A stretch of 64,000 nt of DNA from a virus. Below the pieces are notes generated by a model. It was not told the origin of the DNA. It ran no database searches and saw only the letters and a program-made list of their open reading frames with translations. Shown piece by piece: positions 11,358-54,237 of the stretch (the first letter of the stretch is position 1; each line of letters starts with the position of its first letter). Both the position numbers and the translations under genes were made by a program. The stretch spans positions 64,001-128,000 of the IMG/VR virus record IMGVR_UViG_3300008108_000016; one strand, 5' to 3'.

Positions 11358-11385
11358 AACTTTAATTAACGGATATTTATCGTTA

Positions 11386-12816
11386 ATGAAAGTATCTATT
11401 AAACATATCAAATGCCCTATGACAAAGGAAAGTAGGGATCTTGCAAAAGTTTTTATTGAATTCTTACAAAAGAGATTTCCTCTTAATCACGATATTACAG
11501 TTTTATTTTTAGGCGAAAGAACTGGTACTATGACAACAGGTAGTAGAAATAATGATCACGTTTTAAAAGTATTAACAAAAAAAAGATTAAATAGAGATAT
11601 TTTAAAAACATTATCTCACGAGTGGGTTCACGAATACCAACATTCAATTTTAGGTAGAGAAAGAGGCCCAGATATTGGTGGTCAAAATGAAGATGAAGCT
11701 AACTCATATGCGGGAAGATTAATGAAGATTTTTGAGAAAGAACACCCTGAATTTACTGAATTAGTTTACGAAGGTTTTAAAAATACATTAAAAAGAATTG
11801 ATTTAATCTCTGAACAATTTGTTAAAAAAGATAAAGAATTAATACAAGAACAATTCCTATTAGAAATGAAAAAAATAGGAATAGATAAATTACCCTATTC
11901 TTATTCGGCATTAAAACAATTTGTGGATCCCGAAACAATGGATATTCACTATAACAAACATTACAAAGGATATGTAAAAAAACTTAACGATGCCTTGTCA
12001 AATAAGAAAGGTGAAATGGAACTTGAGGATATAATTAAAACCATAAGTAAGTTTGATACTAAAGTTAGAAATAATGCTGGTGGAGCATTTAATCATGCAT
12101 TATTTTGGAAAATGTTATCACCAAAAAAACAAACACCAAAGGGAGATATCTTGGAAAGAATATTAAAACAATTTGGTTCTTTTAAGAAATTCAAAGAAGA
12201 ATTTAACAAAGTCTCAATGGATAATTTTGGATCGGGTTGGTGTTGGTTAGTTCTAACGAAAACAAATAGATTAAAAATAATGTCAACACCAAATCAAGAC
12301 AATCCTTTAATGAATATAATTGATGGTGGTGGATATCCATTATTAGGTCTTGATTTGTGGGAACACGCATATTATTTGAAATATAGAAATAAAAGAGATC
12401 AATATATTAAAAATTTTTGGGATTGCGTGAATTGGGAATTCGTTAATAGTCTTTATGACTTGAAAACAAACAAAAAAGAAACAATTAATGAATCGGTTGA
12501 TCGTAGAGAAAAATCGGCATTAAAATGGTTAAACAAGAAATTTGGTGATCTTACACCGGTGGTTGTTGACAATAGAACATATTATATTGATGAGGACAGA
12601 AAACCATTATTTTACTATTCCCAGGATTCAAAATATAAGGATATTTATATAAATTACGAAAGAATTTGGTCGTTTTTTAATTCTATTTTTGGTCTGAATA
12701 CCTTGCAAACACAGGAGATTCTGAAGGTATGGTTGGAAGAGACCTATAATTTAAAGGGGGTCACACCTCCTAAAATTGTGTACCGCGGCTTTAAAATGGT
12801 TGGAAGAGACCTATAA
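11386..12816 (+). CDS. sod: Fusion: HExxH zincin-like domain + Mn/Fe superoxide dismutase + C-terminal domain ending in a repeat array
   Basis: HEWVHE...EDEAN; LPYSYSALKQ, HYNKHY, NNAGGAFNHALFW, FGSGW, NQDNP, DLWEHAYY; an extra domain of about 105 aa after KETINES. Confidence 0.88.
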   Translation: MKVSIKHIKCPMTKESRDLAKVFIEFLQKRFPLNHDITVLFLGERTGTMTTGSRNNDHVLKVLTKKRLNRDILKTLSHEWVHEYQHSILGRERGPDIGGQNEDEANSYAGRLMKIFEKEHPEFTELVYEGFKNTLKRIDLISEQFVKKDKELIQEQFLLEMKKIGIDKLPYSYSALKQFVDPETMDIHYNKHYKGYVKKLNDALSNKKGEMELEDIIKTISKFDTKVRNNAGGAFNHALFWKMLSPKKQTPKGDILERILKQFGSFKKFKEEFNKVSMDNFGSGWCWLVLTKTNRLKIMSTPNQDNPLMNIIDGGGYPLLGLDLWEHAYYLKYRNKRDQYIKNFWDCVNWEFVNSLYDLKTNKKETINESVDRREKSALKWLNKKFGDLTPVVVDNRTYYIDEDRKPLFYYSQDSKYKDIYINYERIWSFFNSIFGLNTLQTQEILKVWLEETYNLKGVTPPKIVYRGFKMVGRDL

Positions 12817-12890
12817 TTTAAAGGGGGGGGCACGCCAGTTGTGTCTCGTATGTTATAAAAATAACAGTCGGAGGAAACCTTATAATTTAA
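12732..12890 (+). CRISPR. CRISPR-like mini-array, type VI-B-like repeat: two full repeats, one degenerate repeat, two spacers
   Basis: R1 12732-12767 GTTGGAAGAGACCTATAATTTAAAGGGGGTCACACC (36 nt); spacer 31 nt; R2 12799-12836 (same, with a G8 run and CACGCC end); spacer 30 nt; R3 12867-12890 GTCGGAGGAAACCTTATAATTTAA. No cas genes in the window. Confidence 0.6.
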
Positions 12891-12943
12891 CCCACAAATA
12901 ATTAGTTTTTATTTAGTTGGATATTTATATAAAAACATTTATT

Positions 12944-14068
12944 ATGTCTATAATACCAGAACCAGAAAGATCTGACTTATATAAAAAAATCAGACATTTA
13001 TTAGGAGCACCATTGAGGGGTGTAGAATTGGAGGATGAACAAATGGATACATTATTGGAGTTTTCAATTGATCAGTATTCTCAATATGTTCACGATTGGT
13101 TGATTGAATCTCAATGGACAAGTTTATATAACTTAAACGTTGACACGCAATCTGTTGCAAGAGCGTTCGTATCTAAAAGTTTGGATTATGAAACAAGATA
13201 CACATATGCGTATTCCAAAATTGTTGGTTTACAGGCAGGTGGAGAATGGGAATTAAAGAAAGACTATATTCAGTTGGTTCCAAATCAACAAATATATGAG
13301 ATACCCGCAAACAGAGAAATTAATGAATTATTATGGTTTACACCGGCAGAGTTAAATAATATGTTATTTGATCCTTGGACATTTGGTGGTATTGCTGGAG
13401 GTGGTATTTCAGGCCCTGCGGGATACGCTCAACTTGGTAATATGTCAGGATCATATTTTATGATGCCAGCATTTGATATGTTATTAAGAATGCAAGAAAT
13501 TAATATTCAAAGAAGAATTATTGCGGGAGATTTAACATATAGAATCACTGCATTACCGGGAGGGAAGAAAGCAATACATTTAATGAACACACCGGGAGGT
13601 AAATTTGATTTTGGTAATTCAACTTTAGCAAAGGGTAAAGTTTGGTATTGGTATTATGACACAACTGAAGGAGGAAGAGATCAATGTTTAAAGGATAACC
13701 CTGATATTATCAAATTACCTTCCGATGTTCCAATTGATAAATTAAGTTGGGTTGATCTTAATCACCCTGCGCAGATATGGGTAAGAAACTGGTTTATTGC
13801 AAGTTGTAAAGAAACACTATCAAAAGTTAGAGGTAAATATAGTGGTAATCTTAAAACACCCGATAGTGAATTAACAATGGATTACCAATCATTAGCAACT
13901 GAAGGTAAAGATGAAAAAACCAAATTAATTGAGGAATTAATTGGTGCTGAAGGTAAATTAACAAGATTAAGACCTGATAAGGTATTAGAGCGTGAGGCGT
14001 TAATTGCAGAAAATTTAAATAAGCAATTAAAGTTCAGAGCCATGCCAAGACAAATTTATGTAATATGA
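12944..14068 (+). CDS. Neck protein, gp13-like
   Basis: IRHLLGAPLRGVELEDEQMD at the N-terminus and LSKVRGKYSG near the C-terminus; the ATG at 12944 follows TATTTAT at 12922-12928. Confidence 0.75.
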   Translation: MSIIPEPERSDLYKKIRHLLGAPLRGVELEDEQMDTLLEFSIDQYSQYVHDWLIESQWTSLYNLNVDTQSVARAFVSKSLDYETRYTYAYSKIVGLQAGGEWELKKDYIQLVPNQQIYEIPANREINELLWFTPAELNNMLFDPWTFGGIAGGGISGPAGYAQLGNMSGSYFMMPAFDMLLRMQEINIQRRIIAGDLTYRITALPGGKKAIHLMNTPGGKFDFGNSTLAKGKVWYWYYDTTEGGRDQCLKDNPDIIKLPSDVPIDKLSWVDLNHPAQIWVRNWFIASCKETLSKVRGKYSGNLKTPDSELTMDYQSLATEGKDEKTKLIEELIGAEGKLTRLRPDKVLEREALIAENLNKQLKFRAMPRQIYVI

Positions 14069-18258: not shown

Positions 18259-18414
18259 ATGGCAAGACCAACAAAATTAGAAAAAGACAGAAAGATTAAA
18301 TTTGGAATAAGTTTAGATCGTGATTTGTTTGATAGAATGGTTAAAGAAAAAATTAAAAAGTCAACATTACTTAATAAATTATTAAGAGAATATTATGAAA
18401 ACAAAAATTTGTAG
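18259..18414 (+). CDS. Small ribbon-helix-helix protein (51 aa, not in the ORF track)
   Basis: MARPTKLEKDRKIKFGISLDRDLFDRMVKEKIKKSTLLNKLLREYYENKNL*; TATTTAT at 18247-18253; overlaps the HNH start. Confidence 0.7.
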   Translation: MARPTKLEKDRKIKFGISLDRDLFDRMVKEKIKKSTLLNKLLREYYENKNL

Positions 18415-19006
18415 TAAATGTAAGGAAGAAAAGGATGTTTGTGAGTTTTATAAAAACAACAAAAATCCTAACTTATATAGAGGAAGTTGTAAAATATGTA
18501 TGAATAAACAATCAAAAGAATATACTGAAAAAAATAAAATCTCTATCTCCGAAAAAAATAAAGAATATCGTAAAAAAAACAGAGAATTGATAAAAATTAA
18601 AAGAAAAAAATATTTAGAAAACAACCCAAATTTATTTAAAAATTGGTATAATAAAAACAAAGAAAGTAGGAAGGAGTATTTAAAAAAATATAATTCCAAC
18701 CCAATAGTAAAAGTAAAAAATTCATTAAGATCAAGAATAAACGAACTAATGAATAAAAAATACAATAACCCAAAAACAACAGATTTAGTTGGGTGTGATT
18801 ATAGTTTATTAATTGAGTATATTGAGAGTAAATTTACAATTGGAATGTCTTGGGAAAATTATGGTTATTATGGTTGGCATATTGATCATATAGTCCCATT
18901 ATCCTCGGCAAAAAATGAAAATGAATTAAAAAAATTATTCCATTATACAAACCTACAACCATTATGGGCTGAAGAAAATTTAAGTAAAGGAAATAAAATA
19001 TTTTAA
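18395..19006 (+). mobile_element. HNH homing endonuclease
   Basis: N-terminal CSKC...CKIC zinc finger; WHIDHIVPLS...HYTNLQPLWAEENLSKG; antisense to its neighbours. Confidence 0.85.
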
Positions 19007-20664
19007 CATTCTTTTCTTAATTCTTTTGCATAGTGGTCAAATCTCTCGTGATCAACTGGAGTTAATAATAATAAACCACCCCTTAATTGATTTTTCTTTG
19101 TTAATTGGTAATGATGACTCATCCAAGTGTTTTCAAAAGGATAAGTCCACTTTGTATCCAAAAACATTTTTTTATTACCTTCCTGACTTATAATATGAGT
19201 CCAATTACAATAGTATATTTCACCATCAACATATGGTAATCCTTTATGTGACATTATATTATTAAACTTAGTTTTTGGCGCATTTGGGTCTAATCCATTG
19301 ATTGGTAAATTTGGTTTTTCTGGAAAATACTCATTTCTTTTTTCTTGTGGAAGATTATACCACGGCCAACAAGTTCCGTTGTCACCGTAAAATTCAGTGT
19401 AATTTATTTTTAGAAATTCAAAATTTTCTTTATTCATTATTTCAGTACACTTGTTAAATAAATTTGGTGTGTATCTATTGAATCCATTTCTACAAGTCTC
19501 ATCTGGTTTATTTTGGAAAAACATATCGTCCTCTGACCACCACATATATTGTAAATCTGTATTAGCAAAATGTTCTGCAACAAACTGTCTTCCACCACAA
19601 ATACCCAAATTATTTTTCTTTATATGTAGAAAATTATACTCATCACATAGTTCTCTATACCTTGGTGTTGTTGAAAGGTCGGTTGAGTTATCAAGTAAAA
19701 ATTTTTTTGTTTTATGAATAAAGTTTGGATCATAATCCAACATTGATTTTATTAAAGTTTCAAATTGTTTTGGTGAATTAAATGTAATTACATATAAACC
19801 AACATCTCCATTATAATTTGTAACAACTTTTTTTCCTTCATTTTTTAATACAACCTTATTATTTTTCACATCCTCAAAAAATTTATATACAAGTCCATTG
19901 GATTCTATTTGACAATAATCAATTAATTTTGGGTATTGATATAGTAAGATTGTAAATAGACTTTCTTCTGTCCCCATAAATCCTCGTTTAAGTGTATCAA
20001 TTAATAACCCATAATACAATGTATTCATTTGTGATATAGTATCTTTGTTACCACCAAAGAATCCTCCACGAGCAACAACATTGGGTATAGAATTTGTCAG
20101 CTGTTTCATTTCATTATAATCAAATCCGTGAATTTCTAACTCGGCGTCATATGGAAAACTAACAAACAAAAACTTATCTGTTATAATGTTGATTTTTTCT
20201 AAAACATTATCGTGAGTGAAATATCCCGAATGAACCGTGTTTGTTAAACCAGCATCAATCCAGTATAATTTTTCTGAATTAAACTTATCTAAAATTTTGG
20301 CATCGTTAAGTAAAAACATTTTAGACATAACAAGGGGGTTATACATTTCTAACCTTGATTGTGTGGAATCTTTTAACCAACCAACTTGATTATACCATTT
20401 TGGGTTGTTCCTGATATTTTGAATTAAATCAAAGTATTCATTGGTTTTAAACCAACTTAAATCTCTTAAAATAAATTGAGTATTACTTTCGTCTCTCACA
20501 CTAAAAACGAATTCTTTTAATTCCGAATCCCCAAATATTATCATCTTGGAGTCCATCTTTAATAACTCCGAAAATTTATCAAGGTAGTGAGTATAAGATC
20601 TTGACCAACCATCATTGAGTTCTCCTCTACCAATATCCCATAAACCAGTTACTAATGTTATCAT
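19003..20664 (-). CDS. Two-domain glycosyltransferase-like protein (HtrL/WlaTC-like + GT-A)
   Basis: ITLVTGLWDIGR, WIDAG, GGFFGG, GTEE; second domain LDNS...GICGGRQ...WSEDD. Confidence 0.65.
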   Translation of the reverse strand: MITLVTGLWDIGRGELNDGWSRSYTHYLDKFSELLKMDSKMIIFGDSELKEFVFSVRDESNTQFILRDLSWFKTNEYFDLIQNIRNNPKWYNQVGWLKDSTQSRLEMYNPLVMSKMFLLNDAKILDKFNSEKLYWIDAGLTNTVHSGYFTHDNVLEKINIITDKFLFVSFPYDAELEIHGFDYNEMKQLTNSIPNVVARGGFFGGNKDTISQMNTLYYGLLIDTLKRGFMGTEESLFTILLYQYPKLIDYCQIESNGLVYKFFEDVKNNKVVLKNEGKKVVTNYNGDVGLYVITFNSPKQFETLIKSMLDYDPNFIHKTKKFLLDNSTDLSTTPRYRELCDEYNFLHIKKNNLGICGGRQFVAEHFANTDLQYMWWSEDDMFFQNKPDETCRNGFNRYTPNLFNKCTEIMNKENFEFLKINYTEFYGDNGTCWPWYNLPQEKRNEYFPEKPNLPINGLDPNAPKTKFNNIMSHKGLPYVDGEIYYCNWTHIISQEGNKKMFLDTKWTYPFENTWMSHHYQLTKKNQLRGGLLLLTPVDHERFDHYAKELRKEC

Positions 20665-21254
20665 TGTTCTTTAATTTTACATACCCATACAACTAAACGA
20701 AATTCATCCTCCATATATGGTTTAAGGTTATAAGTTAAACAACTTTCATTAATATCGGAATCTTGTATTTCTAACCAATTCCATATTTTATCTTTTATAT
20801 TTTTATTAAAGTAATCTTCATTTGGTGCATAATCGTGAGCCATAATAATATCACCAATTTTTAGAAATTGTGATAATAATCTAAATTCGTTTTTTTTACT
20901 ACCACCATCACAAAGAACTAAAGTACGTCCTTCAGATTGTATAAAATCTTTTATCTCGTCAGGATAATCCAAGTCAGAATATGGATAATTAAAAATATTT
21001 TTTGTTATTATTTCTATATTTTTATTTTTTAACTTTAGATTTTTCTGTTCGTTAAGATCATAAGTTCTAATAACATTAGATTCTAAATTATTATTGTCTA
21101 ATATATTTCTTAACATTAATGTTAGTCCTCCATCCGCAGTACCAATTTCTAATATTCTATTTGGTTTATAATTTTTAATTAACTCATTAAAAACATTATC
21201 AACATTTGGGTGTTGACTAATAATTAAATTTTCATATATAAAATGTCCATTCAT
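20661..21254 (-). CDS. SAM-dependent methyltransferase (CmcI-like)
   Basis: ILEIGTADGG, LCDGG, IMAHD. Confidence 0.7.
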   Translation of the reverse strand: MNGHFIYENLIISQHPNVDNVFNELIKNYKPNRILEIGTADGGLTLMLRNILDNNNLESNVIRTYDLNEQKNLKLKNKNIEIITKNIFNYPYSDLDYPDEIKDFIQSEGRTLVLCDGGSKKNEFRLLSQFLKIGDIIMAHDYAPNEDYFNKNIKDKIWNWLEIQDSDINESCLTYNLKPYMEDEFRLVVWVCKIKEQ

Positions 21255-21257
21255 ATT

Positions 21258-22505
21258 TTATAAATTTCCCGTTAATCTTTCACACCATCCTTTTGATAAG
21301 CTGTGAGGCCAAACAACCCAATATTTTGGTTTTTCGGTTGTATTAAATTCTCTCCATATTTTACAATATTTATCAGGATCGTTCATCATTCTGTTTATTT
21401 CATTAATGTCGGCATCTTGTCTATGTAGTGTCTCATCTTTTTCATTGTGAAACGCAACAACCCAAAAGTCATAATCCGTTTCTTTAACATAGTCATAAGA
21501 TATATCAATACAATGTTTAAACACTTGTGTAAAACTATTTAACCACTCTTCTTCATCATTAAAGTCATATGGATTTGGTGGATAATTCTTATCTAATGTA
21601 TATTTCTGAACAGATCTTTTTGAGAACAATATTCCCGCATATTTTTCATAATCTCTAATTGTTCTCTCAGAACCAAAACCGTATTTACCCAAATCACCCT
21701 CATATGATTCTCCATCAATACCTAATATTTGTCTATTTTTTCTATGACAAGATTCATTCTTCTTATACCATTCCTTATCATCATCCCATTGTTTGGTTCT
21801 ACCTTTTCTTGTGTATTCGTGCCAAATAACAACTTTATGAGGGTGGAATAAATCATATCCGTGTGTATATGCTCTCACGGCAATTGATATCTCTTCCCCG
21901 TGAAAGTAATATTCAGGGTCGTGTTGAACTTCCTTTGAAAATTCTCCCAAAGTGAAAGCAAAATGTGCGGAATAGAATCTTGTGGGAATTGGTTCTTTTA
22001 GATCTTTCCAATTAGGAATGACTTCAGGTAGAAAAAACACAACACCTTCAGGTGTGAATCTATCAAAAACCATTCGCCAAGGTTCGGTAACTCTCCCTTG
22101 TGGGTCATTTTCAGGGTCAAATGATGAAACATAACCAGTCAATAAAGGTTTCTTATATCCTTTCTTTTGTAATTGTTTAATCATTTTGATTAATGTATCA
22201 TCCCAATCTTGTTCAAATCTCATATGGGAATCTAACTGAAGTGTATATTTTTCACCTTTGTATAATTGTTGTACTTGGTTTCTTGCCCAACAAACTCCTG
22301 TTGATTCTTGGTATGGTATATTTAAAATACGAAATCTCTTATCATTTTCATATTCAGATAAATTATCAAATCCATCTTCAGGGTGAAATTGACGACAAAT
22401 ACCAAATACTAAATTTTCAGGTTTTTTTGCTTTATCAATACAATCTTTAATTGTTGGGATAAGTTGGGGATCCCTATAGGATGCAATTTGAATAAAAATT
22501 TTCAT
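21258..22505 (-). CDS. GT60-type polypeptide alpha-GlcNAc transferase (Skp1 Gnt1-like)
   Basis: IFIQIASYRDP, GVCWAR, LQLDSHMRF, FHGEEISIAVRAYTHGYD. Confidence 0.8.
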   Translation of the reverse strand: MKIFIQIASYRDPQLIPTIKDCIDKAKKPENLVFGICRQFHPEDGFDNLSEYENDKRFRILNIPYQESTGVCWARNQVQQLYKGEKYTLQLDSHMRFEQDWDDTLIKMIKQLQKKGYKKPLLTGYVSSFDPENDPQGRVTEPWRMVFDRFTPEGVVFFLPEVIPNWKDLKEPIPTRFYSAHFAFTLGEFSKEVQHDPEYYFHGEEISIAVRAYTHGYDLFHPHKVVIWHEYTRKGRTKQWDDDKEWYKKNESCHRKNRQILGIDGESYEGDLGKYGFGSERTIRDYEKYAGILFSKRSVQKYTLDKNYPPNPYDFNDEEEWLNSFTQVFKHCIDISYDYVKETDYDFWVVAFHNEKDETLHRQDADINEINRMMNDPDKYCKIWREFNTTEKPKYWVVWPHSLSKGWCERLTGNL

Positions 22506-32008: not shown

Positions 32009-32815
32009 TCAAAAATAACCAAATTGATCAAACATCCATTTATATCTATTTTTTACCCAGTTGGATGCCTCAATACCTAATACTTCATTGTAATCTTTTT
32101 TAATTGGTTCAATCTTTTGTTTTATTGTATGATCACCATATATACCATATACACTATCATCTTCTGTTGTTATTTGTTCAACATGATCAAAATCGTGACC
32201 GTCATAATAAGGTAAACCCAAATAATTATATATTCTATCCATTTCAGTTTTTGGACTTGAGGTAAAGTCCTCAAATCTAACAAACAACATTTTATTGTTT
32301 AAACCTTCTTTAAAAATTTGATATAACCTTTCTAAAGCTAACCCAACAGGTTGACCTTGAGACCAAATATCAATTCTTTTTTCCGTTGTTGTGCCAGCCA
32401 TTTGAGAATGGTTTACAATTCCGGCATCCAAATGTTGATTTTTTCTGAAGTTTTTTTCCATTGATGCAAAAATTGCTCTTGGATCTCTAACCATACAAAT
32501 TATTTTTGGATTAGGATAAAATGAATTTAAGAAACCGTAATGAACTCCCCATCCTCTACTCTTATCTAAAACATATGGTTTGTCTGTAATCCCGTTATAA
32601 AAACCCTCAAGACCGTTACGACAAAAAGATAAAAAACCATCTTTCATTAAGTTTTGATCTTGGGCTTTAAATTCGGGTGAGTTAGAATAATTTGCTCTTG
32701 CGGCATAAACTAACTCTAATACACCTGAAGTTGGTGTAACATAAAAATCAGGATTTTGTCCCATTACATTTTGTAGTAATGTTGACCCTGCTCTTGGTAA
32801 AGAATGGACACTCAT
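32009..32815 (-). CDS. PAPS-dependent sulfotransferase (N-terminus apparently truncated)
   Basis: SLPRAGSTLL (5'-PSB loop), DKSRGW, MVRDPRAIFAS (3'-PB), VRFEDF. Confidence 0.8.
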   Translation of the reverse strand: MSVHSLPRAGSTLLQNVMGQNPDFYVTPTSGVLELVYAARANYSNSPEFKAQDQNLMKDGFLSFCRNGLEGFYNGITDKPYVLDKSRGWGVHYGFLNSFYPNPKIICMVRDPRAIFASMEKNFRKNQHLDAGIVNHSQMAGTTTEKRIDIWSQGQPVGLALERLYQIFKEGLNNKMLFVRFEDFTSSPKTEMDRIYNYLGLPYYDGHDFDHVEQITTEDDSVYGIYGDHTIKQKIEPIKKDYNEVLGIEASNWVKNRYKWMFDQFGYF

Positions 32816-33632
32816 GTGTCATTCCGTTGAAATTATAATCAAACAGATAACTGTCAGGTAATTTAACATCTGTAGGTAAATCGGCAATAATATTTTTATG
32901 AATATCATAACCAAATAACTTTGGTGATGTTCCCACCCATAAAACGACCGATGGGAGATTTAATGCTGCCGATGCGTGTTGTAAAGAAGAATCAATTAAA
33001 ATTCTTTTTTCTGACATCAACAATAAAGAAAACAATTCCATGTTTGACATTGGGTCTTTAATTACCTCTACATTTTCTAAAGCATTAAATTCATGTCTAC
33101 AAATTTGTATTATGTGATAATATTTTGAATAGTGATTAACCAAATGTTGTGATACAGAAATTGGCATATCTCTTGTCCATGAATAAGGATAAGGTTGGTC
33201 GTTTAAAGGTCCTCCGTTTGTTTGAATAACCATAATTGGTTTTTCTCTTTTCCATCTGTTAAACCCAACTTGTTTTTGCCTTAAATTGAATTTTAATTCA
33301 GGTTGTTCCCCGTTGTACTCCAATCCAAATAATTTACACCAATTTAAAATCAATGGTAATTTTTTATGAATGTGGTCATCCGTAAAATATGGTTCGTGTT
33401 TAAAAATCTTAATATCCTTATCTTTAATAAAATCATCATAAAAATATGGAGTATTACCGATTCTATAAACTCTATCCACAAAATCCAAATTCAAGAATAT
33501 TTCTGGATACGCACAAACAACAATAAGATCCCTATCGGGAAAATTGTTTTTAATACATTTAGCAACTGCGGTTGATGATACGTGTTTTCCTAATCCACCC
33601 TCAAGGTGAAATAATGAATATTTTTTTTCCAT
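32748..33632 (-). CDS. GT9-like glycosyltransferase (C-terminus apparently truncated)
   Basis: GGLGKH, IDSSLQHASAALNLPSVVLW...FGY. Confidence 0.7.
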   Translation of the reverse strand: MEKKYSLFHLEGGLGKHVSSTAVAKCIKNNFPDRDLIVVCAYPEIFLNLDFVDRVYRIGNTPYFYDDFIKDKDIKIFKHEPYFTDDHIHKKLPLILNWCKLFGLEYNGEQPELKFNLRQKQVGFNRWKREKPIMVIQTNGGPLNDQPYPYSWTRDMPISVSQHLVNHYSKYYHIIQICRHEFNALENVEVIKDPMSNMELFSLLLMSEKRILIDSSLQHASAALNLPSVVLWVGTSPKLFGYDIHKNIIADLPTDVKLPDSYLFDYNFNGMTHECPFFTKSRVNITTKCNGTKS

Positions 33633-33652
33633 GATTAAATTATAATTTGATT

Positions 33653-34558
33653 TTAACTATTAGTAAATGAGAGAGCTTTGTTAATTTGATCAATAACCAT
33701 TTGTGGTGTTATTGTCGTATGACATTCATTTTCTCTATTCGTATTTAAAAAAATTGGGCACTTTGATGATATATTTGGGATTATATTAAAACATCCATTA
33801 CAAACATTTTTATTTATAACTCTAAAACAATCAAACTCATTATGTTCTTTTGTAAATCCCGATATCATCACAACAGGAACATCGTACGCCCAAGCAAGCC
33901 AAGAAAGACCTGACGACAATCCAATAAATAATCTTGACTCCAATATATGATTTAATGAAACATTAATATCATCAAATCCGTGGTATCCTTTAACATTCTT
34001 AAGATTTAATGTATTTTCATACGAAACATTATATACCTCAAATCCTGATCTAATAAGTTCATCAACAATAATTTGCCATTTATCTTTATCCCAAGTAGCA
34101 ATTGATTTTAATGATTCCGGAGCAATTGTTATTTTATTATTAATAATTTTTCTTTCTTTTTTAATAAGAGAAGGTTTGATAGGTTTTGTTGATTGTGGGA
34201 TCATCATTGTATCTTTTGTTGCATACATCATGCCACCCAACGTATGAGAAACATCTTCCTTATCATATCCAACAGAAATATGTTTATCAACAATGATTCG
34301 TTTTTTTTGATTTGCATTTATAAATTCATACTTATCATTATTTGATTTTAATAAATGAGGAAAAAATGTTGAAACCAAAACTTTTTTTGGTTTATGATAA
34401 TCAACAAATTGATCCATAAATGATGCAAAACAAATTGTATCACCCAAACAAAAGGAATTGAAATGTAATAGAATTTCTTTATTTTCTAATGTTTTGGTAT
34501 TCTTATCATTTTCAACATAGTCTAACAATTCCGTATTGTCGTAATGTCTTTTAATCAT
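33653..34558 (-). CDS. Aah/TibC-like autotransporter O-heptosyltransferase homologue
   Basis: CLGDTI, FIGLSSGLSWLAW, VVMISGFT..HNEF, and the four-Cys motif VCNGC-x10-C-x11-C. Confidence 0.75.
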   Translation of the reverse strand: MIKRHYDNTELLDYVENDKNTKTLENKEILLHFNSFCLGDTICFASFMDQFVDYHKPKKVLVSTFFPHLLKSNNDKYEFINANQKKRIIVDKHISVGYDKEDVSHTLGGMMYATKDTMMIPQSTKPIKPSLIKKERKIINNKITIAPESLKSIATWDKDKWQIIVDELIRSGFEVYNVSYENTLNLKNVKGYHGFDDINVSLNHILESRLFIGLSSGLSWLAWAYDVPVVMISGFTKEHNEFDCFRVINKNVCNGCFNIIPNISSKCPIFLNTNRENECHTTITPQMVIDQINKALSFTNS

Positions 34559-35295
34559 ACTTTTAATTTTAATATTTTTGAGTAATACTCAAACCAATAT
34601 CTTTCAGTCCATATGGTTCCTTCTTCCAAAGAAACTAATGGTTTTTGTTGCCAAGGCTTTTTAACAATATAATGAAATATTTTAATATACTTTGGAAGTC
34701 CTGTATTATGAAAAACTTGTTTGTTATAAGTTTTTAGGAAATTATATTCTATTGGGAATGATGTTATAATATCTTGAAAATAGTAATTTATGATATCCTG
34801 ATCTAAATGTTCCGTGATACCATAAAGTTTTGTTAAATTGATTAGATCGTTTGTTATTTTTTGATTAAGGTATTTTTTACTTATTACCATAACTCCGGTA
34901 TTATATTGATCAATATATAATTCTCTAATGGCACCGAAAGAACATTGTGAATCAATTAATTTGTCAATATTACCCAATATTAAAGTATCACAATCTAAAA
35001 AAATTATTTTGTCCACATCCTCCATTGAAAAAATCTCATATTTGGTATAATCACCAAATGACATTTGTTTCTTTTTTAATTCCTCAATTTCATAATATTT
35101 TGACAAATCGTAAGTTTTTAACAAAACATTATTGTGTATTTTTCTTGAAGTAATCAAATCATCATGAGTCAAATCGTTACTAATTACAGTGAATGGAATA
35201 TCTTCTTTAATTATTCTTGGGTTATTCTCAATTAGAGATTTTAACATAACCTCAAACCCAATTAGATATTCTTTATTACATACGGTTACAAACAT
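34555..35295 (-). CDS. Glycosyltransferase family 8
   Basis: FLDCDTL, YNTGVMV, DQDIIN, FHYIVKKPW. Confidence 0.85.
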   Translation of the reverse strand: MFVTVCNKEYLIGFEVMLKSLIENNPRIIKEDIPFTVISNDLTHDDLITSRKIHNNVLLKTYDLSKYYEIEELKKKQMSFGDYTKYEIFSMEDVDKIIFLDCDTLILGNIDKLIDSQCSFGAIRELYIDQYNTGVMVISKKYLNQKITNDLINLTKLYGITEHLDQDIINYYFQDIITSFPIEYNFLKTYNKQVFHNTGLPKYIKIFHYIVKKPWQQKPLVSLEEGTIWTERYWFEYYSKILKLKV

Positions 35296-35308
35296 AGATT
35301 AAAGTTTT

Positions 35309-36127
35309 TTACAGGTAATTAAATTTTTCAAAAAACCACAAATAGTTTTGAATAATAATATTACAATTTTTTGAACCTAAAATATTCAAATAATCATCCT
35401 TTAATGGTTTTATTTCTCGTTGTATTTTATGATCACCAAATATTCCATGTATTATATCATTTTCGTGTGTTAGTTGATCAACATTTTTAAAATCATGTTT
35501 ATAGTAAGGGATTTCCAAATACTTGTAGATTTTTTGAATTTCTATTTCTGGGGTTTTACAAAAATCTTCATATCTTATAAATAAAACATTTGAATCTAAT
35601 CTTTGTTGTGTAATATCATACAACCACTCAAGAGCTGGCCCAACGGGAGGTGAAACAGAAAAATGAACCATTCTTGAATCTGTTGTCATGTTTTTTAATT
35701 CCGCACCATTAACAATTAATGGGTCTTTATGTGGATTTTTTCTGTAATTTTTTTCCATTGACGAAAAAATTGATCTTAAATCTCTAACCATAATTATTAC
35801 TTTTGGGTTGGACTCAAAAAAATCTAAAAAACTATAATGTCCTGACCACGCTCTACTTTTATCTAAAACATATGGTCTATCTGTTATTTCATTAAAGAAT
35901 CCCCATAAACCACCTTTACAAAATCCTCTAAAACCTTTTTTCATTGTTTCAGCATCTTGAGCCTTAAACGCATCTCCTGTTGAATATATTGTTCTTGCTT
36001 GTAATAGAAACTCAACCACTCCTGATGTTGGTGTTGAGTAAATGTCCGGATTTTGCATCATAACATTTTGTAATAATGTTGATCCTGCTCTTGGTAATGA
36101 TGCATTAAAGAATATATTTTTAACCAT
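35309..36127 (-). CDS. PAPS-dependent sulfotransferase
   Basis: IFFNASLPRAGSTLL, MVRDLRSIFSS, IRYEDF; paralogue of 32009-32815. Confidence 0.85.
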   Translation of the reverse strand: MVKNIFFNASLPRAGSTLLQNVMMQNPDIYSTPTSGVVEFLLQARTIYSTGDAFKAQDAETMKKGFRGFCKGGLWGFFNEITDRPYVLDKSRAWSGHYSFLDFFESNPKVIIMVRDLRSIFSSMEKNYRKNPHKDPLIVNGAELKNMTTDSRMVHFSVSPPVGPALEWLYDITQQRLDSNVLFIRYEDFCKTPEIEIQKIYKYLEIPYYKHDFKNVDQLTHENDIIHGIFGDHKIQREIKPLKDDYLNILGSKNCNIIIQNYLWFFEKFNYL

Positions 36128-41552: not shown

Positions 41553-41840
41553 ATGGCGGTTACAGAAAGATTAAATTTTGATCAACCACAAAATGAGTTA
41601 GGTCAAATTGCGGAACAACAAAGACAGAGACTTATACCAAAGAATGATTATAAACCAACTAATCAATATTCACAAACAAATAAAGATGCAATATCCGATG
41701 GGGATGAATTAGGTAAAGGTACTGGAGGATTTTTGGATACAACTAATGGAGGATCTTCAATTGATATTCTTGAAAGAAAGAATGAAATAAAAATTAATGA
41801 ATATCAATCTAATAAACCGTATACAACTCCTTCGGTTTAA
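41553..41840 (+). CDS. Hypothetical protein
   Basis: ORF within the operon (DAISDGDELGKGTG). Confidence 0.6.
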   Translation: MAVTERLNFDQPQNELGQIAEQQRQRLIPKNDYKPTNQYSQTNKDAISDGDELGKGTGGFLDTTNGGSSIDILERKNEIKINEYQSNKPYTTPSV

Positions 41841-42244
41841 TGAAACTTTACAACTCTCTGAAAAGTCTTATTCTTGAGATAGCATCAATAGATTCAATTG
41901 TTGATGCAATTAAGAAAAAACAGAAAGTTGTAATTTATTACAAAGGAGATGAACCAGGTGGAAATGGACTAAGAACTATTGAACCCGTTTGTTTTGGGTA
42001 TAGTAAGGCAGGTAACCCTGTTTTACGAGCTTGGGATTTAGAAGGAGCTTCACATAGAGCATATTTAGGGAAGAAACCTTTACCAAGTTGGAGATTATTC
42101 AGGGTTGATAAAATAGTTTCGTTTAGACCAACCGCAGAAAAGTTTGATACACCAAGACCTGGTTATAACCCTAACGGAGATAAAAGTATGACTAATGTAA
42201 TTGTAAACGCTGTATTTGGTGGTACTGAAGAAACTATAACATAA
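41840..42244 (+). CDS. Stand-alone WYL-domain protein
   Basis: VIYY...RTIEPVCFG...LRAW...WRLFRVDKI. Confidence 0.75.
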   Translation: MKLYNSLKSLILEIASIDSIVDAIKKKQKVVIYYKGDEPGGNGLRTIEPVCFGYSKAGNPVLRAWDLEGASHRAYLGKKPLPSWRLFRVDKIVSFRPTAEKFDTPRPGYNPNGDKSMTNVIVNAVFGGTEETIT

Positions 42245-43882: not shown

Positions 43883-45122
43883 AGAAAGCCCCATGAATGG
43901 TCGTGAGAGAATTAGAGTATTAGTTCTCCCAAGTGACCAATCTGGGGTTGGCTGAGGTAAATTCCGTTCAGTTGACCCCCATGTAATGTTACAAAACAAA
44001 TATCCTGATGAATTTCACGTTGATATTGATTACGAACCAAAAATAAATGATCAGAACTATTGGAAACAATATCAAATTGTTCATTTCCACAGAAATATCG
44101 GTCAAAATTATGAAGATTGCCCTGCACTTATTGAATGGTTAAAAAGTGTTGGTATCGTTGTTATTGCGGATGTTGACGATTATTGGTTACCAACAAAGGA
44201 ACATCCTATTCATCAGTTAATTATTAACAATAAAATTCACGAGAAGATTATTGCAAATCTTAAAGTATCATCATACGTTACAACAACAACAGATATTTTT
44301 GCGAATGAAATTAGAAAGTTCAATAAAAATGTTTATGTTTTACCAAACGCAATTGATCCAAGAGAAGAACAATTTAATCAACCAACTTTACCTTCCGAAA
44401 AAATCAGAGTAGGTTGGCTTGGTGGATCCTCACATTTACACGATTTGAAGTTATTGGATGGTATGGTAAATAAATTAAAACCTCAACAGGATAAATTACA
44501 ATTTTATCTTTGTGGTTTTGATACAAGAGGAACCGTAACAGAAATTAATAAAAATACGGGGGAAGAAGTAAGAAGACCAATTAAACCCGAAGAAACGGTT
44601 TGGGTTAAATATGAATCAATTTTTACTGACAACTATAAAATAATTTCACCAAATTATAAATTATTTTTGGATAGGTTTAATGATGAAGAGTTTCTTGGGT
44701 GGGAAAATGAAAACTACGTAAGAGTATGGACAAAACCTGCAACATCATACGCAAAGAATTATTCAAGGTTTGATATATCATTATCACCAATTGTTGATCA
44801 CGTTTTTAACAGGATGAAATCACAACTTAAAGTTATTGAGGCGGGATTCTATAAAAAAGCCTTAATCGCATCAAACGTTGGGCCTTATACCATAGATCTT
44901 AAACATTCGGTAAGTAATGGTAAATTTGTTGATGGTAATGCCCTATTGGTTGACAAACATAGAAACCATTCAGATTGGGTTAAAAACGTTAAATTGTTGG
45001 TAAACAACCCAAACATGGTTAAAGATATGGGTGAAAGATTATATGAAACCGTAAAAGACACATATGATCTTAATATTGTTACAAAAAATAGAAGTGAATT
45101 TTACAAATCTTTAATTAAATAA
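43875..45122 (+). CDS. GT-B (GT4-like) glycosyltransferase with an in-frame TGA at codon 27
   Basis: The ATG at 43875 reads MSKESPMNGRERIRVLVLPSDQSGVG*GKFRSVDPHV, in frame with ORF 43986-45122 (DVDDYW, RVGWLGGSSH, KSQLKVIEAG). Confidence 0.75.
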
Positions 45123-45124
45123 TT

Positions 45125-45826
45125 ATGATTAATATACCAATTACCAAAATTTTATTCCTTGACATTGAAACCGTTGGTGGATGCCCTGATTATGAATCCT
45201 GTGAGAAATTCAATCCAGATCTTGCCAATCAATTTAACAAATATTTTGATTGGTTTCAAAAAAGATTTCCCGAAGATGAAAGTCTGTTTAGAGAGGAAGT
45301 GTTTAAGAAACGAGCAGCTCTTGTTCCTGAATTTGCAAAAATTATCTGCGTATCAATGGCGTTTGTAATGGACAACGGAGAAGTAAAAAAACAGACATTT
45401 TCTGGTGATGATGAAAAAGAATTATTGATTCAAGTTAGAAATCTTCTTGATAGATGTAGTAAACTTGATTTCTATCTTTGTGGTCATAATCTAAAAAACT
45501 TTGACATTCCGATGCTTGCAAAACGTATGATCATAAATGGAATTATGCCATCAAAACTTTTACCATCATATGATACAAAGCCTTGGGAGGTAAAAGCAAT
45601 TGACACAAAAGAAATTTGGCAATACGGAGCGTATACATCAATTGGTTCTTTGGATCTTGTTTGTTCAACAATGGGAATACCAACACCAAAAGATGGGGAA
45701 ATTACTGGTGATAAAGTTCACGATGCTTATTGGATAGAACAAAAATTAAACTCAATATCTGAATATTGTGAAAAGGATGTTGAAGTTCTTATTGAATTTA
45801 TAAAAAAACTTAAAAACTTGGGATAA
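45125..45826 (+). CDS. DEDD 3'-5' exonuclease (PolB-related, stand-alone)
   Basis: FLDIET, GHNLKNFDIP, YCEKDV. Confidence 0.85.
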   Translation: MINIPITKILFLDIETVGGCPDYESCEKFNPDLANQFNKYFDWFQKRFPEDESLFREEVFKKRAALVPEFAKIICVSMAFVMDNGEVKKQTFSGDDEKELLIQVRNLLDRCSKLDFYLCGHNLKNFDIPMLAKRMIINGIMPSKLLPSYDTKPWEVKAIDTKEIWQYGAYTSIGSLDLVCSTMGIPTPKDGEITGDKVHDAYWIEQKLNSISEYCEKDVEVLIEFIKKLKNLG

Positions 45827-45827
45827 T

Positions 45828-46415
45828 ATGACTAAAGAAAATGATGATTTTTTTGAACAAATAAAAGATCTTGAAGAAACTTTTGATGGTGATGAACCTG
45901 ACTATAATGCTGTTATGGAACTATTTGGAATCGACATAAATGAAATTGATAGAGAAATGAAATCGTATAACACAAAAGTTGAGGTTAATTATACCACAAA
46001 ACATGAAAATTCTGTAGACCCTGTATACGCTTACCCAACAGATTCAGGATTTGACTTGCATTCAACAGAGGAAATAGATATTGATCCATTTGGTAGAACC
46101 TTGGTTCCAACAGGATTGTTTATTGACATTCCCGAACATTATGAAATTCAAGTTAGATCAAAAAGCGGTTTAGCATTAAAACAAGGTTTGATGGTATTAA
46201 ATTCACCAGGTACGGTAGATCAAGGGTATACAGGTGAAATAAAAGTAATTATTTTTAATACGAATAATCACAAAGTTAAAATTGATAAAGGTCAAAAAAT
46301 TGCTCAGGCGGTTTTTTCTCCTGTTGTTTGTGGTAAGTGGATCAATTTTAATAAAGTAATTAACATTAACGATAAAGACAGATCTGATAAAGGATTTGGT
46401 AGTACAGGGATATGA
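45828..46415 (+). CDS. dut: Trimeric dUTPase
   Basis: SGFDL, RSKSGLA, GTVDQGYTGE, IAQ, RSDKGFGSTG. Confidence 0.92.
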   Translation: MTKENDDFFEQIKDLEETFDGDEPDYNAVMELFGIDINEIDREMKSYNTKVEVNYTTKHENSVDPVYAYPTDSGFDLHSTEEIDIDPFGRTLVPTGLFIDIPEHYEIQVRSKSGLALKQGLMVLNSPGTVDQGYTGEIKVIIFNTNNHKVKIDKGQKIAQAVFSPVVCGKWINFNKVININDKDRSDKGFGSTGI

Positions 46416-47836
46416 TAACAATAGGATACTCAACAAGAAAACATAACCAAGAATACATTGATTATCTTCAAAAAACTTCAATGTACAAAGAAGTGGAAAT
46501 TATAGAAAAAATTAATAATGGTGAAAAATCATTGTCTCAAGTTTATAATGAAATTTTATCTGAATCAAAATACGATATAGTTGTTTTATGTCATGACGAC
46601 TTAGAATTTGACACAAAAAATTGGGCAGATAAAATACTTAAACATTTTAATAAAAATCCTGAATATGGTATTTTAGGTTTAGCTGGAACAAAATATTTGG
46701 ATAATAATGGAAAATGGTGGGAAGTTCAGAATACCATGTATGGTATTGTTAATCACAAACATGAAGGTAAAAAATGGACAAGTAATTACTCAAAAGATTT
46801 AGGTAATAAAATTGAGGACGTAATAATTGTTGATGGATTATTTATCGCAATAAATAAGAAAAAGATTAAACACAATTTTGATGAATCGTTTAATGGATTT
46901 CATTTTTATGACTTAGGGTTTTGTTTGCCTAATTATTTAGATGATGTTAAAATTGGAGTAATGTTTGATATAAGGGTTACTCATCTTTCCATAGGACAAA
47001 CTAACCAACAATGGGAAGATAATAGAATTCAGTTCGCAATTAAATATAAAGATAAATTACCTATAGACATTAATAATAAAGAATTATCCGAAACTTTCAT
47101 TTTTGTTCACGATCAAGATATAGTTCTTGAATTTGAATCGTCCAATAAACTATCTAATTTATATAAATATAAATACGTCTTTTTAGGTAATAGACCTATT
47201 GATAAGATAGGGTATTTATCTAATTTAATAATTGCAAGAAATTATGAAGACAATATAGAACAATATCCTTTATTTACTTCCTATACTGGTTGGTATTGTC
47301 TTTGGAAAAATAATTTAATTAATACTAAATACATTAATCTTTTTGAGTACGATACCATCTTAAATAAGAATATTGATCAATTTCATACAAAAATTTATGA
47401 GAATGACGTTGAAATGGTTGGATACGTTCCGTTTCCTGTAAGAAGTTATGAATTTATTTTAAACCCTTCTTGGAATGAAAATGTTATACCGGCAATTAAA
47501 GAAATACATAAATTTGATTTAATCTCACACTATAACAAAATTGTACAAAATTCACCAGATTCAGTGTGGTCTTCTACATCAAATACAACATTTAGAAAAG
47601 ATATTTTTGATGATTTTATGAAATGGTTTTCTCCTGTTGCCGATAGAATTAAAGATACAAAAACTTGTGGTCACGCGCATGAAAGATCCATAACCTACTA
47701 TTCTTACCATAAGAATAGAAAATTTATGATTACAAAAGGACTACTGCAACACTTACAATTAGACTCACATAAAACTCAAGGTCATTTTGTTGACTTACAA
47801 AGTAATTACGATAAATTATTAAAAAATAAACTATAA
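46412..47836 (+). CDS. Two-domain GT-A glycosyltransferase-like protein
   Basis: LCHDDL, VDGLF, GFHFYD; second domain ending GHAHER. Confidence 0.7.
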   Translation: MITIGYSTRKHNQEYIDYLQKTSMYKEVEIIEKINNGEKSLSQVYNEILSESKYDIVVLCHDDLEFDTKNWADKILKHFNKNPEYGILGLAGTKYLDNNGKWWEVQNTMYGIVNHKHEGKKWTSNYSKDLGNKIEDVIIVDGLFIAINKKKIKHNFDESFNGFHFYDLGFCLPNYLDDVKIGVMFDIRVTHLSIGQTNQQWEDNRIQFAIKYKDKLPIDINNKELSETFIFVHDQDIVLEFESSNKLSNLYKYKYVFLGNRPIDKIGYLSNLIIARNYEDNIEQYPLFTSYTGWYCLWKNNLINTKYINLFEYDTILNKNIDQFHTKIYENDVEMVGYVPFPVRSYEFILNPSWNENVIPAIKEIHKFDLISHYNKIVQNSPDSVWSSTSNTTFRKDIFDDFMKWFSPVADRIKDTKTCGHAHERSITYYSYHKNRKFMITKGLLQHLQLDSHKTQGHFVDLQSNYDKLLKNKL

Positions 47837-48492
47837 TGAATTATTTAAGTTTTAGTTTATGGGGTGACAATCTTCTTTATAATATAGGAGCCATAAGAAA
47901 TTCAGAACTGATAAAAACCATATACCCCGGATGGAAAATGATCGTTTATTATGATAACACCGTACCATCAGAAACAATTAAAGAATTGGAAAAAAATGAT
48001 GTTATATGTGTTGATAGTTCGGGAGTACCTTATGGGTGTTTTTGGCGTTTTTTCGCTTCTGACATAGAAGATGCCGAATATGTATGTTTTAGAGATTGCG
48101 ACTCAAGAATATCTGAAAGAGAATTTTTAGCTGTGCAAGAATGGATGAATAGTAAAAAACTAATACACGTAATGAGAGATCATCCCGCACATGGTGTCCC
48201 TTATGGTGCAAGTGGTTTAGGTATTTTAGCGGGTATGTGGGGTATTAAAGGTAAAATAATGGAAATGAGAAAAACTATAGAATCTTTTTTAAAGGATAAA
48301 ATAAATTATTACGGCATTGATCAAAATTTTTTACAACACATATATAAATTTTTTAAGGATAATAAATTCACACATGATGAATTTTTTGAGAAAAAACCAT
48401 TTCCAATAGGAAGAGTTAATGGTAGATTTGTTGGTGAACGAATTAGTATAAACGAAACCCCTGTAACGGAAGACTACAAAATATTATTATGA
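47836..48492 (+). CDS. Glycosyltransferase-like protein
   Basis: SFSLWG, FRDCDSR, MRDHPAH, ILAGMWG, DQNFL. Confidence 0.6.
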   Translation: MNYLSFSLWGDNLLYNIGAIRNSELIKTIYPGWKMIVYYDNTVPSETIKELEKNDVICVDSSGVPYGCFWRFFASDIEDAEYVCFRDCDSRISEREFLAVQEWMNSKKLIHVMRDHPAHGVPYGASGLGILAGMWGIKGKIMEMRKTIESFLKDKINYYGIDQNFLQHIYKFFKDNKFTHDEFFEKKPFPIGRVNGRFVGERISINETPVTEDYKILL

Positions 48493-49208
48493 AAATAGAT
48501 TACATAATTGTTAGTACCAATGATAATAATTTGTACAAAGATTTTTGGCCCGTAGTAAAAAAATTATGGTATGAATTGATTGGGATAAAACCTATTTTGG
48601 TTGAGATATGTGATACAAATGAAATAGTTGATTATGGTGATCATATCATACACAAAATAAAAAAAATAGAAGACATAGATACAGGATTTCAATCACAAAT
48701 AGCAAGAATGTACGTAACTAAGTTTTATCAAAATAGTGTCTGTTTGACATCAGATATTGATATGTTACCATTATGTAAGAATTATTTTGTTAATGATATA
48801 GAAGACATAGATAATGATAATTTAGTTATTTTTAGTTCTGATGCGTATCAAGGTGTTGTTAGATACCCAATATGTTACAACGCATCAAAAGGAAAGGTAT
48901 TCAATGACATTATGAAATTTGAAGACACTTTTGAGGAGTACTGTATAAAATTAAATGACATGGGGTTAGGTTGGGATACGGATGAGTTATATTTTGGAAA
49001 AATGGTTAACCTATATGAAAATCAATCAATAATTACTAAATTAAATCGTGGTTGGGAGTACGGAAGAGCAAAAAAAAGAATAGATAGAGTTTATTGGACA
49101 TATGATGAAAACGAATTAAAATCTCAAAATTATGTAGATTCTCACTCTTTACGCCCATATTCAAGATACAAAAATGAAATAGATAAATTAATAAACTTTT
49201 TAATATGA
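48489..49208 (+). CDS. Glycosyltransferase-like protein
   Basis: TSDIDM DxD motif and WDTDE; within the glycosylation operon. Confidence 0.5.
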   Translation: MKIDYIIVSTNDNNLYKDFWPVVKKLWYELIGIKPILVEICDTNEIVDYGDHIIHKIKKIEDIDTGFQSQIARMYVTKFYQNSVCLTSDIDMLPLCKNYFVNDIEDIDNDNLVIFSSDAYQGVVRYPICYNASKGKVFNDIMKFEDTFEEYCIKLNDMGLGWDTDELYFGKMVNLYENQSIITKLNRGWEYGRAKKRIDRVYWTYDENELKSQNYVDSHSLRPYSRYKNEIDKLINFLI

Positions 49209-49840
49209 AAATATTAATTTTAGTTCTTTCATATGACGATTCAGGAATATATACTGAATTTTATAAAACACAAAAACAAACGTGGGATAGTTTACCTGTT
49301 GAAGGTGTAGACACATATTACTATTTTGGTAATTCAGACGAGGAAAAAATAGACGGGAATAATATTTTTTTAGGGGTGAGGGAATCACTAATGAATTGTG
49401 CTCATAAAACAATAGACGCATTTAATTTAGTGAAGGATTTTGATTTTGACTTTATATTTAGAACAAATTCAAGCTCTTATGTTGACAAAAAACTTTTAAA
49501 AAAATACGTAGAAAATAAATCAAATCAGAATTTTTATTCAGGTATCATTGGGAATCACATGGGCATTCCTTTTTGCTCAGGATCTGGTTATTTTTTATCT
49601 AAGGACTTAGTTAAACTTATTATAAATAATAAGTCAGAAATAAACCATAATCTTATAGACGACGTTGCTTTTGGGAATTTTTTAAAAAATCAAAATATAG
49701 AATTTAAACAATCTGAAAGGTTTGATGTAATAAGTAATGATCACATACCTATGGATTATTTTCATTATAGATTAAAAACATCTCATAGACAAAATGATAT
49801 AAAAAATATGGAATTAATTTTTTTAAACAAATGCAAATAA
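49205..49840 (+). CDS. GT31-like glycosyltransferase
   Basis: FRTNSSSYV, FCSGSGYFLS, IDDVAFG. Confidence 0.65.
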   Translation: MKILILVLSYDDSGIYTEFYKTQKQTWDSLPVEGVDTYYYFGNSDEEKIDGNNIFLGVRESLMNCAHKTIDAFNLVKDFDFDFIFRTNSSSYVDKKLLKKYVENKSNQNFYSGIIGNHMGIPFCSGSGYFLSKDLVKLIINNKSEINHNLIDDVAFGNFLKNQNIEFKQSERFDVISNDHIPMDYFHYRLKTSHRQNDIKNMELIFLNKCK

Positions 49841-50595: not shown

Positions 50596-50602
50596 AATAT
50601 AA

Positions 50603-51184
50603 ATGGAAAAAATAAAGTTAATCTATGAAAATGAGTGTGTAATACCTTCTGATATTAATGAACATTTACCCACCTTACTAAAATACGCCAATGAATGCGA
50701 TCACATAACAGAAATGGGTGTTAGATGGGTTTCATCTACTTGGCCACTATTACTGTCTAACCCCAAAAAAATGATTAGTTATGATATAGTAAAACACCCT
50801 AAAATTGATGAGGTAATTGAGTTATCAAATGAATATAATTTAAATTATCAATTTATTGAGGATGACGTTCTAAAAACTAATATAGAAGAAACTGATTTAC
50901 TTTTTATAGATACCTTACATACATATAACCAATTAATTTGTGAATTAGAATTACACTCTGACAAATCTAAAAAATATATAATTTTACACGATACTACGTC
51001 ATTTGGTAGTGTTGACGAGGTAATATATAACCATGCTAGTTCAGATATTAAAAATTTAGAAACTAAAAAACAAGGACTGTGGACTGCAGTAATTGATTTT
51101 TTAGAGTCGGATAAAGGTAAAAATTGGCAGATTCACGAAAGACATATGAATAACAATGGATTAACAATTCTTAAAAGAAAATGA
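50603..51184 (+). CDS. Class I SAM methyltransferase
   Basis: TEMGVRWVSST, LFIDTLHTY, ILHDT, NNNGLTIL. Confidence 0.75.
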   Translation: MEKIKLIYENECVIPSDINEHLPTLLKYANECDHITEMGVRWVSSTWPLLLSNPKKMISYDIVKHPKIDEVIELSNEYNLNYQFIEDDVLKTNIEETDLLFIDTLHTYNQLICELELHSDKSKKYIILHDTTSFGSVDEVIYNHASSDIKNLETKKQGLWTAVIDFLESDKGKNWQIHERHMNNNGLTILKRK

Positions 51185-52571: not shown

Positions 52572-52581
52572 AATATAAAAT

Positions 52582-53193: not shown

Positions 53194-53195
53194 AA

Positions 53196-54233: not shown

Positions 54234-54237
54234 TACT

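Follow-up and report, generated by a model that had tools for sequence, protein, structure and literature searches.

A CRISPR-type repeat-spacer array at the end of a phage gene, with spacers constrained as peptide

In the 64,000-nucleotide stretch of phage DNA analyzed here (the window), the last coding bases of a small protein domain are also the first repeat of a CRISPR-type array, and among related phages the spacers of such arrays are constrained as peptide. We put at roughly 0.5 the probability of the whole reading, in which the type II-C Cas1-Cas2 of the host, as the inferred enzyme, would write variable protein tails, and the variety of those tails would be the presumed benefit. The window comes from the record of a freshwater T4-like giant phage (157.8 kb, 31% GC) that has a completeness of 51%, about half of the genome, and in which the array is the sole copy. 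The array and its surroundings consist of the following features.

11374 to 11380, plus strand: TATTTAT, putative late promoter motif of the clade, recognized by its sequence upstream of the polyprotein gene
11386 to 12816, plus strand: 476-aa polyprotein ORF, comprising an HExxH zincin-like N-terminal part, an Fe/Mn SOD and the array-bearing domain
12484 to 12495, plus strand: INE/S linker, putative prohead-protease cut site (slash, predicted cleavage)
12493 to 12767, plus strand: unnamed alpha/beta domain of about 92 aa, with its last helix and loop encoded by repeat 1
12732 to 12767, plus strand: repeat 1 (R1), 36 nt, protein-coding; the inferred integration site, at the gene-proximal end
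12768 to 12798, plus strand: spacer 1 (S1), 31 nt, the newest unit, encoding the 10 variable residues of the tail
12799 to 12836, plus strand: repeat 2 (R2), 38 nt, with a degenerate 3' part, read in a shifted frame and containing the stop codon at 12814 to 12816
12837 to 12866, plus strand: spacer 2 (S2), 30 nt, the old trailer spacer
12867 to about 12889, plus strand: terminal half-repeat (R3), 5' part only
12944 to 14068, plus strand: downstream neck-like gene, given for context, with its own TATTTAT at 12922 to 12928

The initial annotation had recognized a repeat-spacer mini-array at this site, and all of its positions hold. The first base of R1 is the third of codon Trp449 in the polyprotein ORF. 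R1 encodes the next 12 residues, which are the last 12 of the domain, and the proposal that R1 is dual-coding, that the 31-nt S1 shifts the frame and that the gene stops inside R2 was correct. R1 and R2 have 32 identical nucleotides, including 3 flanking bases, a match equaled in 0/100 shuffles. R2 contains an apparent G-run and looks like a junction at which an R1-type repeat was joined to an older trailer repeat, and S2 is common to four related phage records with 1-2 mismatches, always in the array just 5' of the neck-like gene. The likeness to type VI-B repeats that the annotation had pointed out is supported by a 21/36 identity to the Bergeyella repeat that lies beside a confirmed Cas13b. 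Two details fared less well: the 3' end of R1 is CACC and not the expected CAAC, and the GACC/GGTC stem does exist as an internal stem of 5 bp but is no stronger than in shuffles (z 0.15).

Upstream of the array, the polyprotein matches the Pfam families Sod_Fe_N (aa 166-245) and Sod_Fe_C (aa 251-355); its N-terminal part (11386-11850, plus strand) has the HExxH zincin-like motif at aa 78 and gave no match in the Pfam search. The INE/S linker is equivalent to the MKIIITE/S leader of stand-alone homologs, INE sites bound modules in the polyproteins of loci L005 and L019, and a Peptidase_S77 (gp21-type protease) is encoded in the record. The SOD ORFs of L005 and L019 are 821 and 962 aa long, and their frame stays open through the repeat, a 30-nt spacer and the half-repeat into the INE-bounded modules. 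TATTTAT stands ahead of 40/124 genes in the record, many of which look structural by inspection. The neck-like gene matches the head-tail adaptor PHROG 211 over a short stretch only (E 5e-10), and the interval between SOD and the neck-like gene ranges among relatives from a single cassette to >1 kb. Elsewhere in the window, distant from the array, a small stand-alone WYL-domain protein is encoded at 41840-42244 on the plus strand (PF13280, E 7e-5); WYL proteins are frequent regulators of defense loci. Big blocks of ORFs at 19003-22505, 32009-36127 and 43986-57395 resemble, by eye, glycosyltransferases, sulfotransferases and sugar-nucleotide enzymes, and a 203-aa ORF at 18395-19006 (plus strand) has Cys pairs and an HNH-like C terminus by eye, with no Pfam match at 1e-3.

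The domain that carries the array belongs to an abundant family. It has 77 close homologs, mostly stand-alone genes of about 100 aa, in all of which the motif encoded by the repeat precedes a terminal tail of unrelated sequence, and a profile search at E<=0.001 collected 684 cluster representatives (50% identity clusters), many of them with other N-terminal fusions. The initial annotation had described the domain as fused to phage SOD; this link is incidental, most family members being stand-alone or fused to other partners. Searches of Pfam, PDB sequences and PHROG with the domain and with a 120-member alignment returned no family and no significant PHROG match, no homolog of the domain was found in GenBank phages, and nothing in an Rfam search came close to the gathering threshold. 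The AlphaFold model of the domain has a pLDDT of 86.5 and places residue 99, the fifth spacer codon, in a beta-bridge within a region of moderate confidence. Against solved structures the fold search gave no clear match (best Z 4.6), a result that does not in itself establish a new fold, and the fold matches were limited to uncharacterized phage proteins.

We surveyed 119 related loci with 151 distinct cassettes; the search motifs came from the domain body and the repeat, so that the sampling is blind to spacer content. The first repeat follows the same Trp in frame in 147/151 cassettes, and the other 4 are cut by contig ends. Spacers are present in 126/151 cassettes, the rest having none; arrays contain 0-7 spacers with lengths of 29-33 nt and a mode of 30, and more than half of the spacers have a length not divisible by 3. 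The annotation had asked whether other copies carry different spacers of fixed length, and the related phages have approximately 210 unique, mutually unrelated spacers, located at the gene end, within that narrow length range. Cassettes are often tandem, with the half-repeat running directly into the next start codon, and a half-repeat is the terminus of 94/115 related arrays. Distant subfamilies have their own repeat cores with the same 36-plus-30 geometry. At L136:8001-10283 a 760-aa protein (P0085) contains a distant variant of the domain five times; the copies are linked by arrays that stay in frame and in which nearly all spacers are 30 nt.

Growth of the arrays is polarized. Five pairs of arrays share a trailer spacer alone and no pair shares a first spacer alone; L138 has a trailer spacer in common with L137 and new units at the gene end. 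The annotation's view that the array is polarized, with decay away from the gene as at a CRISPR trailer end, is borne out by this sharing of trailer spacers. Neighboring cassettes also have a common trailer spacer, as in the L116 arrays at 3417 and 3882 and again in L137/L138, a sign that a cassette was duplicated and that the copies then gained spacers separately. Some spacers in the L085 arrays at 4 and 770 and in the L036 array at 5234 are palindromic, and two of the L085 spacers overlap one palindromic element, suggesting repeated capture from a multi-copy host hairpin. The ends of the repeat are fixed at synonymous sites: Leu is always encoded by TTG/CTG although the genome uses TTA at 58%, and the repeat-end Thr codon is ACA in 85/87, a fixation against genome codon bias that points to constraint at the level of nucleic acid. 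A scan of GTDB genomes with a degenerate repeat pattern matched only Bergeyella and Capnocytophaga arrays of type VI-B, together with a single phage-like contig from a Flavobacterium bin; no repeat closer than the Bergeyella type was detected. The contig in question, L121, is 1.8 kb long, encodes the domain with a two-spacer array and was binned in an uncultured Flavobacterium MAG, either a hint of the host or a case of mis-binning. We consider it very probable that the array grows by CRISPR-type integration.

The spacers are constrained as peptide. Across 210 distinct spacers, the numbers of stops at spacer codons 1-9 in the gene frame are 0, 1, 1, 4, 3, 10, 9, 12 and 11, compared with about 15 each in shuffles; codons 1-5 together hold 9 stops where about 69 would be expected. 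The same five codons contain 9/1050 stops in the gene frame and 347/5250 in the other five frames (p 4e-18); at codons 6-9 the difference from the other frames has a p value of 0.12, and the other five frames are flat. The depletion is present in three repeat subfamilies and in four length classes. It is also seen in later spacers, now outside the translated part, as would be expected if each spacer had once occupied the first position. None of 122 homologous proteins has a tail of under 4 residues. Among the residues encoded by spacers in the gene frame, Cys is depleted, Trp and Asp are enriched and aromatics are favored at codon 2, these tail preferences being modest. Two other causes for the missing stops were examined and rejected: an in-frame native origin of the spacers, because the depletion varies gradually with position and codon usage does not resemble that of coding sequence, and a bias in 5' nucleotides, because at that end stops are as frequent as normal in frames 0 and 2.

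The purge of early stops implies that the tail belongs to the working protein. What it establishes is that the protein needs a tail, rather than that it benefits from new ones, and the purge would equally follow if the array had another purpose and overlapped a needed gene. Diversification of a protein C terminus was one of the functions suggested in the initial annotation, and the gene-frame depletion of stops in spacers gives it direct statistical support.

For some of the spacers a source can be identified. Searches of 1.6 Mb of one Flavobacteriaceae genome returned three peptide matches of 9/9 and one of 8/9, to PurA, aconitase, DPP-IV and a class II (Gly-type) tRNA synthetase, where shuffled sets give 0.35 matches (Poisson p 5e-4) and random Bacteroidota fragments match the genome at 0-6%. 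A fifth spacer has a DNA match with 3 mismatches to acyl-CoA synthetase in three genomes. The matches to host genes are in both orientations, 3 of the 4 best peptide matches being sense; all are to orthologous, inexact targets and involve spacers of related arrays, not the two spacers of the window. By similarity to such orthologs, a Bacteroidota chromosome is shown to be the identifiable source of some spacers. The GC dinucleotide is strongly avoided in clade records G000-G004, at 13 per kb versus 44 in low-GC Bacteroidota, and its frequency in spacers, 22 per kb, lies between the two. This intermediate content counts against the reading that we prefer below.

The approximately 210 spacers have no match in their own records or in 1.8 Mb of clade DNA, and their peptides gave 0/210 matches outside arrays in 412,000 aa of clade proteins, a set in which unrelated phages are barely sampled; as a calibration, 13-50% of random fragments from one clade genome match the other four. 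The suggestion that the array is directed against competing phages is disfavored by this comparison. The window's own spacers have no source in their genome, the 1.8 Mb of clade DNA, GenBank phages or 301 Bacteroidota and 251 Flavobacteriaceae genomes, the best hits having 7-9 mismatches. An exact 21-nt core of S1 has no match in IMG/VR and S1 was seen nowhere else; S2 matches only sister arrays. The spacers of two long arrays gave no match in plasmids, phages, 201 Flavobacterium genomes or 251 Bacteroidota genomes.

In the reading that we prefer, the last 36 coding bases of the small phage domain would at the same time be a site of CRISPR-type integration. While the phage infects, a complex that integrates spacers would work there in trans; the type II-C Cas1-Cas2 of the Bacteroidota host is the most likely candidate. 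It would insert 29-33 nt of the host chromosome at the gene-proximal end of the array and duplicate the repeat. The ribosome would read the new spacer as a C-terminal tail, older spacers would move downstream, and variants in which one of the first 4-5 spacer codons is a stop would be purged. In F. columnare, type VI-B arrays are filled in trans by type II-C Cas1-Cas2, and newly acquired spacers are 28-32 nt long, mostly 30, with no antisense excess before selection (Hoikkala et al., PMC8092290). Cas1, Cas2 and reverse transcriptase (PF00078) were not found in five clade records, four of them incomplete, nor was Cas13b (model NF038190) in the same five records, in a search without a positive control. 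A phage-encoded integrase is a possible alternative: the record of the window is 51% complete, and in the sole complete record, G003, the gene is present and a clear array is absent.

Upstream motifs bear on the timing of expression. TATTTAT precedes 15/33 genes with an MKIIITE-like leader versus 1/33 leaderless genes, and TAnnTTTG, which we take to be the Bacteroidota sigma-70 box, precedes 8/33 leaderless genes versus 0/33 genes with a leader, counts that are not independent because the paralogs are related. Synthesis of the protein would fall either early, under host-type promoters, or late, in which case it would have a capsid-targeting-like leader or form part of a cleavable polyprotein, here behind SOD. 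Both modes of expression, with packaging and cleavage as predicted steps, suggest that the protein acts as infection begins. Its delivery or expression at that stage, probably for counter-defense, would parallel the internal proteins of T4. That Cas1-Cas2 adds random host-derived decapeptides to a virion-delivered or early counter-defense protein, and that the identity of the tail sets which defenses or partners are engaged or escaped, has in our estimate slightly less than an even chance.

Other explanations account for part of the evidence. The array could supply DNA-targeting guides to a host Cas9 (type II-C), transcribed from the minus strand toward the gene and helping to destroy the host chromosome, with the stop constraint as a by-product of overlap with a needed gene. 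Spacers from host genes in both orientations and, on the minus strand, an intact repeat after every spacer would suit such guides, and arrays of huge phages with host-targeting spacers are known (PMC7162821); however, the 101 distinct first repeats vary at positions 28-31, where a tracrRNA would need pairing, no matching host repeat was found in the GTDB scan, a minus-strand -7 box lies downstream of 8/115 arrays only, and the constant coding location of the repeat is left unaccounted for. We regard Cas9 guides as unlikely. The odds are similarly low for a decoy against adaptation, in which the sites would soak up host Cas1-Cas2 and prespacers and block immunization of the host, the tails being merely tolerated. 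A decoy would explain multi-copy sites and the conservation of repeat ends at the DNA level, and has no need of RNA structure or orientation, but a useful sink should take phage DNA and no spacer matches its own record or the clade; moreover, integration in the phage's own gene costs early-stop variants where a non-coding decoy would be free. Unbiased orientation, lengths as in unselected acquisition and the existence of members without a spacer would also be compatible with a neutral neo-array, a gene end that resembles a repeat by chance and receives off-target integration, with purifying selection alone. Synonymous changes could erase such a site, yet divergent subfamilies, whose repeat cores differ, have retained the terminal motif, and arrays have up to 7 spacers, which leaves neutral growth a rather poor candidate.

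The initial annotation had also proposed guides for host Cas13b and an RNA anti-CRISPR decoy, both of which we now consider highly improbable. The 36-nt repeat, the 30-nt spacers, the orientation and 21/36 identity shared with the Bergeyella VI-B array and a partial pairing of positions 12-14 with 23-25 all recall Cas13b. The hairpin, however, is not conserved: mean folding z is +0.14 with an MFE of -4.2 kcal/mol, versus -2.7 and -11.2 for Bergeyella, and pairing between positions 2 and 35 occurs in 5% of repeats. Nor are the spacers biased toward antisense, those that look antisense numbering 96/211 (implied fraction 0.42-0.44) versus 29/45 in native VI-B arrays, and the repeat 3' of the spacer is a half in 50/60 single-spacer arrays, whereas Cas13b requires a whole repeat there. 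The cut last repeat of Bergeyella was considered as a parallel to the phage half-repeat and rejected, as it is a known split long repeat and the phage half-repeats are without a downstream 3' half. Hardly any weight falls on ordinary tandem duplication of the gene end, on a protein repeat or on a diversity-generating retroelement. The period of 66 nt corresponds to 22 codons and some members, such as P0085, stay in frame, but the spacers are mutually unrelated, with bacterial sources and more than half of their lengths out of frame, there is no adenine-specific variation against a template, and no reverse transcriptase was found in the five clade records, four of them incomplete. The unrelated spacers already refute this group of readings.

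To our knowledge, every use of CRISPR spacers described so far works at the level of RNA. In the present arrays, selection acts on the spacer as protein. We found no description of a translated CRISPR-type array in searches of full-text papers, in which subscription journals are largely absent. If tail variety is the benefit, the array would represent a third natural route to targeted protein hypervariation, beside diversity-generating retroelements and recombinase shuffling, and the immune-memory machinery of the host would become the phage's mutator. A further use would be peptide display in vivo, for which the 36-nt repeat would provide a natural coding site of in-frame integration, and the spacers would record the hosts of an abundant uncultured phage clade, as judged from the 684 cluster representatives.

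The related arrays display the features of CRISPR adaptation, namely near-identical repeats, unique spacers of narrow length, growth at one end and foreign spacer DNA, and the array departs in defining features from every known family with which we compared it. Type VI-B repeats have paired GUUG/CAAC ends and a conserved structure (bioRxiv 10.1101/092577, Smargon et al.). Like type VI-B arrays, the phage arrays have a 36-nt repeat starting with GTTG and spacers of approximately 30 nt, add new units at the same end of the repeat and have no cas1/cas2 of their own. In the window, however, the neighbors are SOD and a neck-like gene instead of Cas13b, Csx27 or Csx28. The phage arrays also differ in having a protein gene in the place of the leader with a coding R1, repeats that mostly end in CACC with a weak hairpin, and spacers that are selected as peptide without antisense bias. 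The cas-less arrays and mini-arrays of huge phages, some of whose spacers are against bacteria (Al-Shayeb et al., PMC7162821), are likewise compact, but their action is assumed to be through RNA, and they often have the same repeat as the host or target other phages, whereas the repeat here is embedded in a gene in 147/151 cassettes, varies with the protein and accompanies spacers for which a phage target was not found. Racrs are small non-coding solitary repeats, none of which has been reported for type VI (Camara-Wilpert et al., PMC10651486). They too are phage-borne repeat mimics without cas genes, in contrast to which the present arrays are translated, bear spacers and grow. Diversity-generating retroelements achieve targeted hypervariation of a phage protein C terminus by adenine mutagenesis from a template. 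The C terminus of a phage protein is hypervaried here also, but by the insertion of foreign 30-mers, with no spacer template in the phages' own records and no reverse transcriptase found in five clade records, four of them incomplete. T4 has the internal head proteins IPI-III and Alt, and IPI inhibits GmrSD (PMC9958956). The T4 proteins are without a repeat-spacer tail and show no relation in sequence or fold to the array-bearing domain, for which packaging is a prediction; what the two have in common is a short N-terminal leader with a Glu site ((I/L)-x-E), a gp21-type protease and small, possibly injected proteins.
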